Assembly (NCBI RefSeq): GCF_041248615.1
Contig: NZ_CP158426.1
Strand: one strand, 5' to 3'
Length of the DNA: 64,000 nucleotides
DNA from: Escherichia coli
GTDB taxonomy: Bacteria > Pseudomonadota > Gammaproteobacteria > Enterobacterales > Enterobacteriaceae
The notes below the pieces were generated by a model that had not been told where the DNA came from, searched no databases, and was given only the letters and a program-made list of their open reading frames with translations. Positions 10,297 to 50,482 of this stretch are shown piece after piece. The position numbers were made by a program, and so were the translations under genes. Position 1 is the first letter of the stretch; the number at the start of each line of letters is the position of its first letter.

Positions 10297-10466
10297 AATG
10301 GCTCACTCAAGCTTGCTCACGATTGATTCCAGTAACAAACCGTATTGTGTAATTATTTCTATAGCAGTTCGCTATATAGGCTTGTATACATCGAATAATT
10401 TGAAAATCAAAGAGATAGGTAGATTTTCACTCGAAAGTAGTATTACGTGTAAGTGAGGAGTAATTA

Positions 10467-10480
10467 TTGTTCGGTATCAA
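10467..10480 (-). promoter_or_regulatory. FNR-type site (TTGAT-N4-ATCAA class) in dmsA promoter region
   Basis: reverse complement reads TTGATACCGAACAA, about 170 bp upstream of dmsA ATG. Confidence 0.45.
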
Positions 10481-10491
10481 AGGGAGACAAA

Positions 10492-10506
10492 AAAAGCGCC
10501 CGCAGG
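10492..10506. repeat. attL core (direct repeat AAAAGCGCCCGCAGG)
   Basis: identical 15-mer at 50468-50482; GGTACTTA at 10516-10523 mirrors TAAGTACC at 50456-50463. Confidence 0.55.
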
Positions 10507-10592
10507 AGATTTAACGGTACTTACTCCTCTTGCTGATTTCCTTATTTTTCAATAAGTAAACAAAAACAAGGGGAGCAAATTATCACAAATAA

Positions 10593-11588
10593 TTACTGGT
10601 CGATGGACAGTTTATGGACACTTTCAGCCAGCGGATTAAAGCTGATCGCATCCTGTAAAAAGTCCGGTGAAAAATGCGCATACGTCATCGTTTGCTGAAT
10701 CGTGGCGTGACCCAGGATCCTCTGCAACGTGACGATGTTCCCGCCGTTCATCATGAAATGCGTGGCGAACGTGTGCCGCATGACATGCGTGGCCTGCCCT
10801 TTGGGTAAGTCGGGCTTCACCTCCTGAAGGATCTCCCTGAAACTGAGATAATCAACCTGATATAACAGGCCGGTCCGGCGGGTTTTAATTAACGGCACAA
10901 CGGAATCAGCTACAGGAACCGAGCGCGATTTCCCGTTCTTTGTGTTAAAGAACGTCACCCTGTTACCCACGATGTGTTCCCCGCGAAGCGTTGACGCCTC
11001 TTTCCATCTGGCCCCGGTCGAAAGGCACAGAATGGCAATGCGTCGTGCATCACCCTCAAGCCGTTTCAGAAGGCGATCAATCTCGTCATCTGAAAGAAAG
11101 GCCATTTCTGTATTCTGAACCTTGAGTTTACGTATTCCGCGCACAGGGTTTTCGTTATGATAAACCTCCGCGTCAATTAACAACGAAAACATCGCAGATA
11201 AGGCGCACAGGTCGCGATTGATACTGGACGGCATCAGTCCCGCCTGCAACTTATCCGAGCGATACTCAATCACGAATTTTCGTGTCATCTGGCTGGCGCG
11301 CGGGTCCCCCATTTCACGTATCACCTTCTCCAGTCTGGTTCTGTAGGTATCACCATATGCCTGATTACGACCATCAAGCATCCACCACACCTCAATCAGT
11401 TCTGATAACCGCCGTTGATCGGCGGGCCTTGCCTGCCACGGGTTATTGTGGAAATTCTGAAGAACGTATCTTTCGAATTCCTGCGCCTTTGATTTCAGGG
11501 TGAAAATCTTACGAATCCGCCTTCCTCCCGCCCCCTGAGGCCTTACATCAACCTGATAACGTCCGTCTTTGAGTTGCTTAATCGACAT
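10593..11588 (-). CDS. int: P2-type tyrosine integrase
   Basis: 331 aa from ATG with SD GGAGGTG; N-terminus MSIKQLKDGRYQVDVRP and C-terminal HxLRHxFAT...Y catalytic region; resemblance to P2 Int is from memory. Confidence 0.9.
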   Translation of the reverse strand: MSIKQLKDGRYQVDVRPQGAGGRRIRKIFTLKSKAQEFERYVLQNFHNNPWQARPADQRRLSELIEVWWMLDGRNQAYGDTYRTRLEKVIREMGDPRASQMTRKFVIEYRSDKLQAGLMPSSINRDLCALSAMFSLLIDAEVYHNENPVRGIRKLKVQNTEMAFLSDDEIDRLLKRLEGDARRIAILCLSTGARWKEASTLRGEHIVGNRVTFFNTKNGKSRSVPVADSVVPLIKTRRTGLLYQVDYLSFREILQEVKPDLPKGQATHVMRHTFATHFMMNGGNIVTLQRILGHATIQQTMTYAHFSPDFLQDAISFNPLAESVHKLSIDQ

Positions 11589-11657
11589 GATCAGCACCTC
11601 CGACGGATAAACCTGTTAACCCCTGCTTACTGAACGCCGCCCGTTCAATATACAGCG

Positions 11658-15947: not shown

Positions 15948-16174
15948 GTAACCACTATGCACACACAAAAAAACCGCTTGCCATGCCGCAATCAGTCAGG
16001 TTACATTTCCGCTGCACCTCATAAAACGGGTGCCGGGATTGCAACCCCCGCTGACAACTACAGCGCACAACCGCGCCAGCGGTTTTTTTGTGCGTACCGT
16101 ATCGCCACGTCTTTTTCGCGCCAGAATTATGGCGGGGCGTATGGGGCCGACTTCGGTCGGGCCGGTTTCTGTAG

Positions 16175-16242
16175 TTGCCGGTGGTTGCAACCCTGTACGT
16201 CTCGCCACCCAGAATTGCAACCTCTGGATGGTGAGTTTTCAA
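16175..16242. promoter_or_regulatory. three phased TTGCAAC(C) boxes; a fourth copy at 16029-16036
   Basis: TTGCAA palindromic cores at 16175, 16205, 16236 (30-31 bp apart), upstream of ORF 16268. Confidence 0.35.
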
Positions 16243-46501: not shown

Positions 46502-46753
46502 ATGTTCCGTTGTCCCCTATGCGGTGCATCCGCACGTATCCGCACCAGTCGCAATGAAAATGATTCAGGCACAGTTCGCCTGAAGTACTACCAGTGCAAT
46601 AACCTCGAATGCGGGATCGGCTTTACCACACTGGAGGGTTTTAACAAATTCACATCAAAACGCGCCCCGTCGCCGCAGGGTACAGAGCGGATACCGTGGG
46701 AAGATTTTCCGGGATCTCACAGGGGGAATACTCAGATTAATCTTGATATTTAA
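46502..46753 (+). CDS. ogr: Ogr/Delta-family zinc-finger late activator
   Basis: 83 aa; MFRCPLCG...YYQCNNLEC four-Cys finger; SD AAGGAG. Confidence 0.85.
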   Translation: MFRCPLCGASARIRTSRNENDSGTVRLKYYQCNNLECGIGFTTLEGFNKFTSKRAPSPQGTERIPWEDFPGSHRGNTQINLDI

Positions 46754-46759
46754 GAACAA

Positions 46760-46897
46760 TAATCAGGTTGAGAGGACATCATAAGGCAAGTAGATTAACG
46801 GCAGATACTTTCCCGCAACCACGGGCAAGTATTTAATTATCCATGATGAAATATGACCTAAATTGTTTTTTGCCCGCCGGAAAGCGGGCATTTTTTT
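46760..46897 (+). repeat. repeat unit 1 (partial) ending in bidirectional intrinsic terminator
   Basis: shares GTTGAG...AGTAGATTA...CCATGAT...TTTTGCCCGCCGGAAAGCGGGCATTTTTTT with four downstream units. Confidence 0.55.
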
Positions 46898-47111
46898 ATT
46901 CTTTTGTGGTTATGGGGTCATCAGGAACCACGTGCAGATTATATTTTTGTTTTTTTGGCGTTCCTCCGGCAGCAACGAGTTCATCAATAAGACACTGACA
47001 CGCCTGAACATCCCGGGCATGTCTTAGTTTCACCTTTATTGATTTAACCTTATCCTCACCGGAGGAGAAATGCAGTTCAATCTCAATATCGTTTCTTCGG
47101 AACAATCTCAT
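46896..47111 (-). CDS. small protein of unknown function
   Basis: 71 aa (MRLFRRNDIEIELHF...); two decayed copies downstream; palindrome upstream. Confidence 0.5.
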   Translation of the reverse strand: MRLFRRNDIEIELHFSSGEDKVKSIKVKLRHARDVQACQCLIDELVAAGGTPKKQKYNLHVVPDDPITTKE

Positions 47112-47222: not shown

Positions 47223-47331
47223 TTCATGAATATGATAGATAACTATATTGTGAACAAAATGAAAAATGGCTAAATTAAAAATGGGCATGGAGGAATGCCC
47301 GGTTATCAATATAATGTGACGTAGATCATTG

Positions 47332-47562: not shown

Positions 47563-47688
47563 ATGCATCAGACAAGATACAGCCCACCCCAACTGACACC
47601 TGAAATATTGCCGCAACAAAAAGAAACAGTTAAATTACGCGCGGGTGCCTTTCGGCTGATGGCCGGAGGGAAAACCTGAAGGCCGGAT

Positions 47689-47922
47689 GTGGAAAGGCCC
47701 CGGAAAACATTTCTGTTTAACCGAGGCCCTAACCGCATTACCTTGACAAGTGAAAGGTTAGCGCCTCTCCGGAAAAGGAGCAAGTGCTATGTCGCAAAAA
47801 TCGCTTACGGCCATCACGTTCTGCGTGACGGCAATCCTCATCATCTGGATATTGCACGGTTCGCTGTGCGAAATACGGATGAGCTTCTGGGGAGCGGAGT
47901 TTGCGGCGTTCTTACAATGTAA
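47689..47922 (+). CDS. mok-like overlapping reading frame of hok locus 1
   Basis: 77-codon frame starting upstream of and overlapping hok, as in hok/mok/sok loci. Confidence 0.35.
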   Translation: MERPRKTFLFNRGPNRITLTSERLAPLRKRSKCYVAKIAYGHHVLRDGNPHHLDIARFAVRNTDELLGSGVCGVLTM

Positions 47923-47929
47923 GAAGTAA
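47789..47929 (+). CDS. hok: Hok/Gef-family type I toxin
   Basis: 46 aa MSQKSLTAITFCVTAILIIWILHGSLCEIRMSFWGAEFAAFLQCKK; SD AAGGAG; single TM plus conserved LCE and AAF motifs. Confidence 0.7.
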   Translation: MSQKSLTAITFCVTAILIIWILHGSLCEIRMSFWGAEFAAFLQCKK

Positions 47930-48015
47930 GGAAACCGCGACGGGGGAGCAATCCCCCGTCAATCGGTTGCCAGGGTAAGGTCGATAAGGCACCCTATCTC
48001 ACAGACATGAACAAC

Positions 48016-48050
48016 AAACCCGCAGCATAAAAACTGCGGGTTTTCTTTTT
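48016..48050 (+). terminator. intrinsic terminator of hok locus 1
   Basis: stem CCCGCAG/CTGCGGG followed by TTTTCTTTTT. Confidence 0.5.
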
Positions 48051-48181
48051 GGTGTCCTCACCGACTTGAAACAGTGATCAGACTATAAGACAAAGCCCGC
48101 AATGTTGCGGGCTTACTCTACCTCTCGAAAATGTGGTCACTGCGTGGACATACGCTGATACAAATCCTTTATATCAATAAA

Positions 48182-48280
48182 TTAAATCTTTGTTTTTTTC
48201 ATCAACAATGATTTAACCTTATCCTCACCGGAGGAGAAATGCAGTTCAATCTCAATATCGTTTCTGTGGAACAGCCTCAT
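48182..48280 (-). pseudogene. truncated copy of the 71-aa small gene
   Basis: first 24 codons near-identical to 46896-47111 copy, then diverges to early stop. Confidence 0.45.
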
Positions 48281-48501
48281 AAGACAACCTCCTGAATTCA
48301 TCAGAAACACAGTCAACTGAAAACCAGAAAGCAGACAAACAGTGGACACACATTAATACAAATCATTTATACCTATAGATGAAATTGCAGTTTCATCTAT
48401 AACATGACAGGTAACAATATTGTGAAAAAACTCAAAACTCGTTAGATTAAAGACGGACAGAGCAATGCTACTTTATCAATAACATGTAACCTGTACTTCC
48501 T

Positions 48502-48732
48502 TATTTTGCCCGCCGAAGCACGGGCATTTTTTTTGCGCCTGCCATCGAGGCGCCTTCCCTGGCGCACACAAAGCAGCCCTGATTTTCCATGAAAACTTCA
48601 GGGTTGAGCCAAAAGCACAAAGACAGTAGATTAACCACGGGTGCCTTCCACCTGACAACAGGAAGGGTGTCCAGTATCAATGACAGACAACTCACATTGC
48701 TGTTTTGCCCGCCGGAAAGCGGGCATTTTTTT
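48502..48732 (+). repeat. repeat unit 4, terminator-to-terminator
   Basis: same architecture and sequence family as unit 2. Confidence 0.5.
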
Positions 48733-48734
48733 AT

Positions 48735-48936
48735 TCTTTTGTGGTTATTGGGTCATCAGGAACAACATGCAGATTATGCTTTGATTTTTTTGGTGTTATT
48801 ACAGCAGCAACGAGTTTATTAATAAGACACTGACATGCCTGAACATCCCTGACATATCATAATTTCACTTTATTTTTTTAGCTTGTCCTTTCTGGAGCAG
48901 AAATATCTCAACATCGTTTCTGTGGAACAACCTCAT
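48735..48936 (-). pseudogene. degenerate copy of the 71-aa small gene
   Basis: nucleotide homology to 46896-47111 across its length but reading frame disrupted. Confidence 0.35.
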
Positions 48937-49151
48937 TTGCCCCTGAATGTATCATAAATATCAGCATCGGAAAACCAACAGCAATACAGAAGAAACATGT
49001 TAATGCAAATCACTTATACCTATAGATGAAATTACAGTTTTGTTCATAAATATGATAAGTAACTATATTGTGAATAAAATGAAAACTAGCTAAATTAAAC
49101 GTGGGCATGGTGGAATGCCTCGTAATCAATAATACATGATCCGTACTTCCT

Positions 49152-49380
49152 TGTTTTGCCCGCCGGAAAGCGGGCATTTTTTTGGCGGTTACCATCGCCT
49201 CACCTTCCTGGTTCACATGAAGCAACCCTGATTTTCCATGAAAACTTCAGGGTTGAGACAAAAGCACAAAGACAGTAGATTAACCACGGGTACCTTCCAC
49301 CTGACAACAGGAAGGCTGTCCAGTATCAATGACAGACAACTCACATTGCTGTTTTGCCCGCCGGAAAGCGGGCTTTTTTT
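49152..49380 (+). repeat. repeat unit 6, terminator-to-terminator
   Basis: same family; 5' hairpin region diverged, 3' region conserved. Confidence 0.5.
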
Positions 49381-49582
49381 GGCAGTTATCATAGCCGCAC
49401 CTTCCTGGCACATATGAAGCAACCCTGATTTTCCATGAAAACTTCAGGGTTGAGACAAAAGCACAAAAACAGTAGATTAACCACGGGTGCCTGCCACCTG
49501 ACAACAGGAAGGGGTGTCCATTATCCATGATATACAAACGAAAAGTCTTGTCTTTTGCCCGCCAAAGCGCGGGCATTTTTTT
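49351..49582 (+). repeat. repeat unit 7, terminator-to-terminator (shares a terminator with unit 6)
   Basis: same family; directly upstream of hok locus 2. Confidence 0.5.
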
Positions 49583-49793
49583 ATGCATCAGACAAGATAC
49601 AGCCCACCCCAACTGACACCTGAAATATTGCCGCAACAAAAAGAAACGGATGCCTTTCGGCTGATGGCCGGAGGGAAAACCTGAAGGCCGGATGTGGAAA
49701 GGCCCCGGAAAACATCTGTGTTTAACCGAGGCCTGACCCTTCCTACCGTGACAAGTGGAAGGTTAGCGCCTCTTTGTAAAAGGAGCAAGCGCT

Positions 49794-49934
49794 ATACCGC
49801 AAAAAACGATTATTGTTGGCATTTTATGCCTGACAATAACCCTGGTCATCTGGATGGTCCACGATTCGTTATGTGAATTCAGCTTTGATATCTGGGGAGC
49901 GCGTTTTGCGGCGTTCTTGCAGTGTAAACCGTAA
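49794..49934 (+). pseudogene. hok-like toxin gene copy 2 with ATA in place of ATG
   Basis: encodes IPQKTIIVGILCLTITLVIWMVHDSLCEFSFDIWGARFAAFLQCKP; no canonical in-frame start; mok-like frame 49694-49876 overlaps. Confidence 0.45.
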
Positions 49935-50084
49935 GAAACCGCAGCGGGGGAGAAATTCCCCGCTATCCGGTTGTTGGGGTGGGCCGATATGGCGCCCTTT
50001 CCCTGTAGAGACAAAACAAAAAACCAGATTTGCCCGCCATTGAGAGGGCTTTTTTGTCACCCTCACCAGTGAGGGCATCATCAT

Positions 50085-50467: not shown

Positions 50468-50482
50468 AAAAGCGCCCGCAGG
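50468..50482. repeat. attR core, overlapping the serS intrinsic terminator
   Basis: identical to 10492-10506; continues into GCGCTTTTT terminator 3' of serS. Confidence 0.55.

Follow-up and report, generated by a model that had tools for sequence, protein, structure and literature searches.

In a 64,000-nucleotide (nt) stretch of Escherichia coli DNA (contig NZ_CP158426.1, assembly GCF_041248615.1; hereafter the window), the cargo that a P2-like prophage carries between ogr and attR very probably includes two paralogous hok/sok loci, of which copy 1 is complete and copy 2 is a decaying toxin pseudogene whose sok side is intact. The hok/sok locus of plasmid R1, studied by Gerdes and co-workers, is the paradigm of type I toxin-antitoxin systems. 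An earlier note on this DNA had placed both loci in that family, and its assignment agrees with the peptides, which match HOK_GEF and PHROG 251, and with the leader RNAs, which match the Rfam family RF01794. The two copies align codon for codon, with 52% identity between the proteins and ~81% DNA identity over the leader. Since a 20-mer from the conserved C-terminal coding part occurs exactly 2 times in the window, against an expectation of 0.03, this two-copy resemblance is not a matter of chance.

Toxin gene of copy 1

The intact toxin gene of copy 1, hok1, is preceded by a Shine-Dalgarno (SD) sequence, AGGAG, at positions 47776-47780, 8 nt 5' of the ATG. Its product of 46 amino acids (aa) matched the Pfam family HOK_GEF (PF01848) with an E value of 9.8e-7 over model positions 5-42 of 42, and PHROG 251 ("MokW-like host killing") with an E value of 8.5e-22. 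RefSeq already annotates exactly this gene as a "Hok/Gef family protein" (WP_000078913.1), and the earlier description of copy 1 as a 46-aa Hok/Gef-type peptide with a good SD is confirmed. Copy 1 is thus a known kind of system that is already annotated, and matches to its locus are present in 1671 of 5426 complete E. coli genomes (~31%). Both peptides scored below the cut-offs of the two NCBIfam models compared, namely HokA (NF007290, cut-off 89 bits; 30.7 bits for copy 1 and 39.5 for copy 2) and the Hok family (NF007279, cut-off 73 bits; 21.3 and 21.1 bits). As judged from their sequences, the 46-aa peptides are a distinct Hok clade and not HokA.

Predicted structure of the hok leader

Relatives were obtained as 65 viral contigs fetched by an exact, invariant 25-mer of the leader. 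Counts of promoters and lesions were taken over 45 distinct relatives, and a structure alignment (A3) of 43 distinct sequences, extending from the mRNA 5' end to beyond the 3' element fbi, was used to derive an RNAalifold consensus fold. In this fold, a helix closing the 5' end on the 3' end (columns 2-7 with 369-375) was kept in 99.2% of cells and showed one double compensatory change; in copy 1 it corresponds to a perfect 9-bp pairing of the 5' element tac, GGGUGCCUU (47643-51), with fbi, AAGGCACCC (47986-94). Further elements of the fold were a stem-loop at the 5' end and a hairpin spanning the Sok-target region. A long-range helix (columns 111-120 with 340-348) showed 15 double-sided compensatory changes, another hairpin occluded the hok SD as far as the A of the AUG, and a hairpin on the 3' side also had compensatory changes. 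Standard pairs made up 98.7% of cells in the named structure, compared with 38-47% when the partners were slid by 1-3 columns; under the same displacement, the number of pairs with double-sided changes fell from 13 to 1-4 and the covariation score from 0.179 to at most 0.049. As modeled, the consensus of the 43 relatives corresponds to the classic hok mRNA design.

Comparison with the Rfam sok model (RF01794) gave full-length matches on the plus strand for both leaders, at 47643-47802 for copy 1 (46.2 bits, E = 2.9e-8) and at 49648-49805 for copy 2 (40.7 bits, E = 8.3e-7), neither of which reached the gathering threshold of 59 bits. The positive control, the hokW/mokW/sokW locus of phage 933W read in the hok-sense orientation, reached 113.5 bits. 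Loci of the 46-aa clade that are intact stayed below the threshold as well (P88, 47.9 bits; sister lineage L004, 42.9 bits; VT2-Sakai, 35.6 bits), so the low score characterizes the clade and does not signal decay.

Predicted promoters and antisense RNAs

A hok -10 hexamer (TAGATT, TAGAAT, TAAATT or TACATT) was found in 42 of the 45 relatives, 6-7 nt before GGGTGCC, with TTGnnn 17 nt further 5'; the TAAATT of hok1 aligns with the TAGAAT of 933W hokW. On the opposite strand, the sok -10 box TAACCT was invariant (45/45), and TTGCTC stood 17 nt upstream of it in 36/45. The 933W sokW promoter has the form TTGCCT-17-TAACCT, with an annotated transcription start 7 nt after TAACCT, and Takada et al. 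reported that mutation of the sokW -10 box abolished sokW function (PMC8621323). The sok-like antisense promoter that the earlier note had proposed to look for in the leader was therefore found at the sequence level in both copies, as TTGCTC-17-TAACCT on the minus strand.

The predicted Sok1 RNA has a calculated fold of -27.5 kcal/mol (z score, -4.5) and is complementary to the part of the leader lying 41-99 nt 5' of the hok AUG. Of the 59 nt, 10 differ between Sok2 and Sok1, and 8 of these lie in the 5' tail. The calculated tail duplex of non-cognate pairs (-23 kcal/mol) is about half as stable as that of cognate pairs (-48 to -53 kcal/mol), and cross-neutralization between Sok1 and Sok2 is therefore doubtful in this model. 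Across all relatives, no part of the locus varies more than the Sok-target (sokT) tail, which occupies the stretch between GAGGCC and CAAGT.

The overlapping mok-like frame

In the R1 paradigm, mok is needed for translation of hok. The earlier note had described a mok-like frame overlapping hok1, and this claim held in part: the 77-codon open reading frame (ORF) is real but is not conserved, a canonical-start ORF crossing the hok start being present in 13 of the 43 relatives only. The frame and position of the TTG at 47743 are homologous to those of mokW, and copy 2 has GTG (49748) there; in most of the 43 relatives, however, the position homologous to the mokW start holds a stop codon or no start. 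The relatives were also searched for a conserved leader ORF further upstream that could act as a coupling device, and none was found, as the invariant ATG at 47687 opens only 6-29 codons in a variable frame. A function of the mok-like ORF is doubtful on this comparison, and because the frame is not conserved in the clade, mok-coupled translation cannot be assumed. Sok bound 41-99 nt upstream of the AUG could possibly act through RNase III cleavage or by interfering with a standby or leader-translation site. Lacking a conserved mok, this widespread clade of 46-aa prophage Hok proteins may be controlled by Sok in a manner that differs from the R1 textbook model.

Loss of toxin expression signals in copy 2

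The start position of hok2 reads ATA, and no in-frame ATG, GTG or TTG occurs between the preceding stop, 30 nt upstream, and this ATA. The earlier note had reported copy 2 as a homologue with ATA and no canonical in-frame start, all of which was verified. The first in-frame ATG (49854, codon 21) would yield only a 26-aa peptide without the membrane helix. When M was substituted at position 1, the hok2 product matched HOK_GEF (E = 1e-4) and PHROG 251 (E = 2.1e-17). Alignment with copy 1 and with the sister lineage (alignments A1 and A2) revealed that a 15-bp deletion in the hok2 promoter takes out CAGTTAAATTACGCG, the -10 box included. The -10 deletion and the ATA are restricted to the copy-2 lineage, comprising 3 of the 45 relatives (the window, L002 and L003), and ATG is present in 42/45. 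The G>A change at 49650 in tac2 is the sole A:C break of the closing helix among the 43 sequences. The hok2 terminator is degenerate, where the stem in sister lineage L004 is perfect (GCCCGC..GCGGGC). L002 carries a T>G change at the equivalent of 49825, creating TGA at codon 11, and L003 carries a Val>Leu change. Between the window and L002 there are 0 substitutions in the hok1 transcription unit and 2 in the hok2 unit, which is too few to be tested.

Given the loss of the promoter and the presence of a strong terminator a short way upstream (49556-49575 plus T7), meaningful Hok2 synthesis is unlikely. On this sequence evidence, the toxin gene of copy 2 is a pseudogene and its antisense promoter survives; the case for the suggestion in the earlier note that it "may be inactive" is strengthened by the -10 deletion and the tac mutation. 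The pseudogene call is useful for annotation, since RefSeq skips the hok2 locus and one TPA record (P0001) starts hok2 at ATA; another (P0003) calls the 26-aa tail only.

Copy 2 could instead be a toxin that still works, through low AUA translation and read-through from the upstream promoter of the small RNA (sRNA)-like unit X4. All 45 codons after the ATA are open, the SLCE and FAAFLQC motifs are kept, AUA initiates at ~0.02-3% of AUG in E. coli (bioRxiv 10.1101/063800), and the P0001 record accepts the ATA. We nevertheless regard this as highly unlikely, given that the -10 box is deleted behind a strong terminator, that the tac/fbi pairing of copy 2 is broken in this strain, that the sister genome L002 tolerates a nonsense codon at position 11 and that RefSeq leaves the locus unannotated.

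Alternatively, copy 2 may be kept as an orphan antitoxin, with Sok2 neutralizing the hok alleles of incoming phages or plasmids or serving in regulation. In all 3 sequences of the lineage, the sok2 promoter and the Sok hairpin are free of lesions, in contrast to four independent lesions on the hok side, and relatives show hypervariable Sok 5' tails, which is what specificity determinants would lead one to expect. However, three sequences cannot demonstrate selection for Sok2, and the sok promoter, which shares sequence with the hok SD hairpin, may merely have escaped mutation so far. Moreover, the closest intact toxin allele, that of the P0002 lineage, has a different sokT, and no cognate target of Sok2 is known. 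Retention as an orphan antitoxin is thus improbable, although it is a better candidate than a working toxin, and we continue to read copy 2 as a decaying pseudogene. The sister lineage P0002 (91% amino-acid identity) is represented by 119 contigs of P2-like prophages next to copA. Among complete E. coli genomes, the copy-2 lineage was found in only 26 records (at least 99% identity) with this prophage variant, and other hits had at most 83% identity.

Several points weigh against the reading of one complete and one decayed locus. The assignment of promoters, transcription starts and RNA ends is by homology and consensus only. A generic promoter scan with a 9-of-12 cut-off detected neither the hok nor the sok promoter, and the match to the sigma-70 consensus is poor, at 8/12 for the hok promoter and 6/12 for the sok promoter; it is because they fall below this cut-off that both were assigned by homology. 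Sampling by an exact 25-mer gives a biased, closely related set of relatives, and a single alignment served both to derive the consensus structure and to count its pairs. The signal of decay in copy 2 comes from the three sequences of its lineage, and the patchy occurrence of the mok-like frame counts on the same side. Finally, toxicity and expression of the 46-aa clade are argued by homology.

Relation to known systems and possible roles

The loci resemble R1 hok/sok in a small Hok/Gef membrane peptide with an LCE motif, a weak hok promoter, tac/fbi closure, a sequestered SD, a cis-antisense Sok of ~60 nt that would be transcribed from a promoter inside the leader and end in a stem-loop, and a terminator after fbi. 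They differ from R1 in the length of the peptide (46 aa rather than 52), in scores below the NCBIfam Hok cut-offs and the Rfam gathering threshold, in a mok frame that is not conserved in the 46-aa clade, and in being borne by a prophage and not by a plasmid. With hokW-mokW-sokW of 933W/Sp5 they share the prophage location, the sok promoter (TTGCnn-17-TAACCT, with transcription starting 7 nt downstream), a homologous hok -10 box, the 5' end GGGUGC, the GAGGC box, the AGGUUAGC box and the position of the mok frame. Unlike them, HokW is a different Hok of 51 aa (MKQQKAM...) with a leader of 113.5 bits as opposed to 46 and 41 bits here, and mokW has an ATG and a well-spaced SD, in contrast to the TTG or GTG start found here 16 nt after GAGG. 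The hokW of Takada et al. was considered as a direct homologue and rejected, being a different 51-aa Hok elsewhere in Sp5.

No distinguishing feature sets copy 1 apart from the 46-aa genes annotated as "MokW-like host killing" or Hok/Gef in P88 and in lambdoid phages near lom (PHROG 251), which belong to the same clade; its protein is 70% identical to that of the VT2-Sakai copy, and its DNA is 91-95% identical to the P88, PhiR44_2 and P884B11 loci. Copy 2 differs from these genes by its inactivating lesions and its tandem placement. The VT2-Sakai copy, a second 46-aa hok that lies in Sp5 besides hokW (L075 768-908, near lom), is unannotated in AP000363. It follows that the published hokW-sokW deletion left another hok locus in place. 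Pedersen and Gerdes reportedly found in 1999 that chromosomal hok loci of E. coli K-12 (hokA, hokC, hokE and others) are inactivated, mostly by insertion sequence elements or rearrangements. Copy 2 is like them in having decayed after acquisition, but its lesions are a promoter microdeletion and a point mutation in the start codon. Literature searches on hok in P2-like prophages found nothing specific.

We propose, by analogy with R1 hok/sok and 933W/Sp5 hokW-sokW, that the weak promoter gives rise to an hok mRNA of ~410 nt that would be kept inert by tac/fbi pairing and by the hairpin burying the SD, and that the antisense promoter within the leader would produce a Sok of ~59 nt, so that an unstable Sok would silence a stable hok mRNA. 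If sok transcription were to stop, because the element is lost, the host is shut off or the prophage is induced, Hok would be made, insert in the inner membrane and kill or lyse the cell. Hok toxicity, neutralization by Sok and post-segregational killing have been shown only for R1 hok/sok and hokW-sokW (PMC8621323). By analogy, we infer that copy 1 may function in addiction, lysis help or phage exclusion.

Defense genes are frequent in the cargo regions of prophages, which counts for an exclusion role. The hypothesis that copy 1 acts in phage exclusion by abortive infection, and not in prophage stabilization or lysis help, is also favored by the effect of R1 hok/sok on a high-copy plasmid, where T4 plating fell by 42% and plaques became ~85% smaller (as cited in PMC8621323). 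In contrast, hokW-sokW, the only prophage hok/sok that has been tested, promoted release of its own phage after induction, and its deletion halved Sp5 release at induction (PMC8621323). A PADLOC search gave no match at E <= 0.1 for either hok peptide or for the two flanking small proteins, which also speaks against exclusion. Since sequence features do not discriminate between addiction, lysis help and exclusion, we treat exclusion as a tentative reading that is more likely wrong than right. The suggestion of phage exclusion in the earlier note needs correcting in that such an effect is documented only for R1 hok/sok on a high-copy plasmid, and hokW-sokW, the nearest prophage case, instead aided release (PMC8621323). 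The two loci have little significance on their own, and only the non-conserved mok frame and an unannotated sRNA-like array are mildly unexpected.

Origin of the tandem and the sRNA-like array

The cargo is made up of three stacked, diverged cassettes that are 77-89% identical, each in the order of a fragment of a 71-aa minus-strand gene, a Y unit, one or more X units, and hok. Relatives with a single cassette carry either the hok1 allele (L022) or, behind the same upstream sequence, an allele of the hok2 type (L004-L007). Upstream of the hok leaders, 136 bp are 99% identical between the two copies, as opposed to ~75-81% for the hok bodies, which indicates that the tandem arose when related phages recombined unequally at repeats they share. 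Copy 2 would then be an allelic cassette that was stacked in tandem by recombination among related phages and later decayed. Two tandem hok leaders are also present in L056 (4318-5409), where two intact copies specify one and the same toxin but differ in their hypervariable sokT tails, and in L067 (about 230-764), where a single intact copy is readable, the second being too close to the end of the contig. These observations suggest that hok cassettes, with their hypervariable Sok-target tails, become stacked in P2-like phages and are shuffled among them.

The 71-aa hypothetical gene (WP_001236182; 46896-47111, minus strand) has truncated, diverged repeats at 48182-48349 and 48865-48936, both on the minus strand, and these repeats mark the three stacked cassettes. 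The repeats of this gene are overlapped by a small plus-strand ORF (MQFNLNIVS..., at 47070 and 48240), which has a strong SD but no conserved length.

Eight sRNA-like units lie on the plus strand between 46760 and 49585, comprising X units at 46766, 47430, 48602, 49251 and 49448 and Y units at 47247, 48419 and 49067. The X units have a TTGAGn-17-TAGATT promoter and a predicted RNA of ~95 nt, the Y units a TTGTGA-17-TAAATT promoter and a predicted RNA of ~79 nt, and both share the near-identical terminator UGCCCGCCGGAAAGCGGGCA-U7. The X RNA is predicted to fold into a hairpin at its 5' end, followed by an A/U-rich single strand and then the terminator. None of the units is annotated, and they occur in only 30 of the 5426 complete E. 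coli genomes. They matched no Rfam family; weak matches to RyhB (24.4 bits) and AgvB (23.2 bits), both far below threshold, fell at 48678-48732 and 49327-49380, and X2 and X3 carry, immediately before the terminator, CUCACAUUGCU, a sequence that agrees with the RyhB consensus of the Rfam alignment. When the units were compared with the anti-sRNA class of PMC4104026, membership was not demonstrable.

The promoter and 5' end of an X unit, TAGATTAACCACGGGTGCCTTCC (48626-48660), resemble the hok promoter and tac 5' end, TAAATTACGCGCGGGTGCCTTTCGG (47631-47665), and the X units may derive from the hok leader. The 5' sequence GGGUGCCUU of the X units is complementary to the fbi element of the hok mRNA. 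It is conceivable, if a long shot, that the toxin-dead copy 2 is kept for its orphan Sok, as immunity to or cross-regulation with the hok alleles of competing P2-like phages, or that the X units pair with fbi and so tune toxin activation. Were X units to pair with fbi, the cargo between ogr and attR would be an interacting RNA network instead of a stack of relics.

Prophage setting and feature coordinates

Both hok/sok copies lie inside a ~40-kb P2-like (Peduoviridae-type) prophage inserted beside serS. Its ends are defined by AAAAGCGCCCGCAGG, the longest exact repeat common to both, and its right-arm cargo is everything from ogr to 50468. RefSeq gives the gene order as tail sheath, tail tube, gpE, tape measure, gpD (VgrG/Pvc8 family) and the ogr/Delta zinc finger, followed by the 71-aa hypothetical gene, one "Hok/Gef family protein", and then serS, rarA, lolA, ftsK and lrp. 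It is gpD, ogr and serS, together with the att core, that place both hok loci inside the prophage, and the "prophage cargo" context given in the earlier note is correct. In the sequenced Peduoviridae phage P88, the place behind the gpD homologue is likewise taken by a hok/gef gene. The 2.9 kb around both hok copies are 100% identical to NZ_LT599825 and ~25 other complete genomes. The features are listed in Table 1.

Table 1. Positions in the window of the features of the two hok/sok loci and of the prophage ends
Feature	Position	Strand	Sequence, basis or remark
hok1 coding sequence, 46 aa, intact	47789..47929	+	ATG 47789 to TAA 47929; peptide MSQKSLTAITFCVTAILIIWILHGSLCEIRMSFWGAEFAAFLQCKK
Predicted hok1 promoter	47608..47636	+	-35 TTGCCG (47608-13), 17-nt spacer, -10 TAAATT (47631-36); sequence and homology
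Predicted full-length hok1 mRNA, ~410 nt	47643..48052	+	5' end GGGUGCC to intrinsic terminator; Rfam sok model start 47643, terminator, consensus fold
tac-like 5' element	47643..47651	+	GGGTGCCTT; pairs with 47986-47994
mok-like overlapping ORF	47689..47922	+	77 codons from GTG 47689; TTG 47743 at position homologous to mokW codon 2
Predicted Sok1 antisense RNA, ~59 nt	47690..47748	-	5' single-stranded tail and stem-loop ending GGGGCCUUUCC; analogy with annotated sokW, ends inferred
sok1 promoter	47755..47783	-	-35 TTGCTC (47783-78), 17-nt spacer, -10 TAACCT (47760-55); conservation and sokW design
fbi-like 3' element	47986..47994	+	AAGGCACCC; complementary to tac
hok1 intrinsic terminator	48016..48052	+	10-bp stem (48016-48043), then TCTTTTT
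hok2 promoter remnant	49628..49647	+	-35 TTGCCG (49628-33) kept; 15-bp deletion between 49646 and 49647
tac2	49648..49656	+	GGATGCCTT; window-specific G>A at 49650, G in L002 and L003
Predicted Sok2 antisense RNA	49695..49753	-	Fold -26.2 kcal/mol, z score -4.2
sok2 promoter, intact	49760..49788	-	TTGCTC-17-TAACCT; sequence and conservation in 45 relatives
hok2 pseudo-coding sequence	49794..49934	+	ATA CCG CAA ... TAA; ATA at start position, then 45-codon open frame
fbi2	49991..49997	+	GGCGCCC
Degenerate hok2 terminator	50029..50055	+	GCCCGCCATTGAGAGGGC-T6
attL core	10492-10506		AAAAGCGCCCGCAGG; 15-bp exact direct repeat; just beyond dmsA, adjoining integrase ORF
Integrase ORF	10593-11597	-	
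ogr	46502-46753		
attR core	50468-50482	.	AAAAGCGCCCGCAGG; ~30 nt beyond serS stop

Other structured RNAs were matched elsewhere in and beside the prophage. An isrK match (60 bits) and a C4 antisense RNA match (80 bits) stand in tandem at 16014-16212 in the prophage early region, and an STnc130 match (126 bits) lies at 10387-10521, between dmsA and the attL core.

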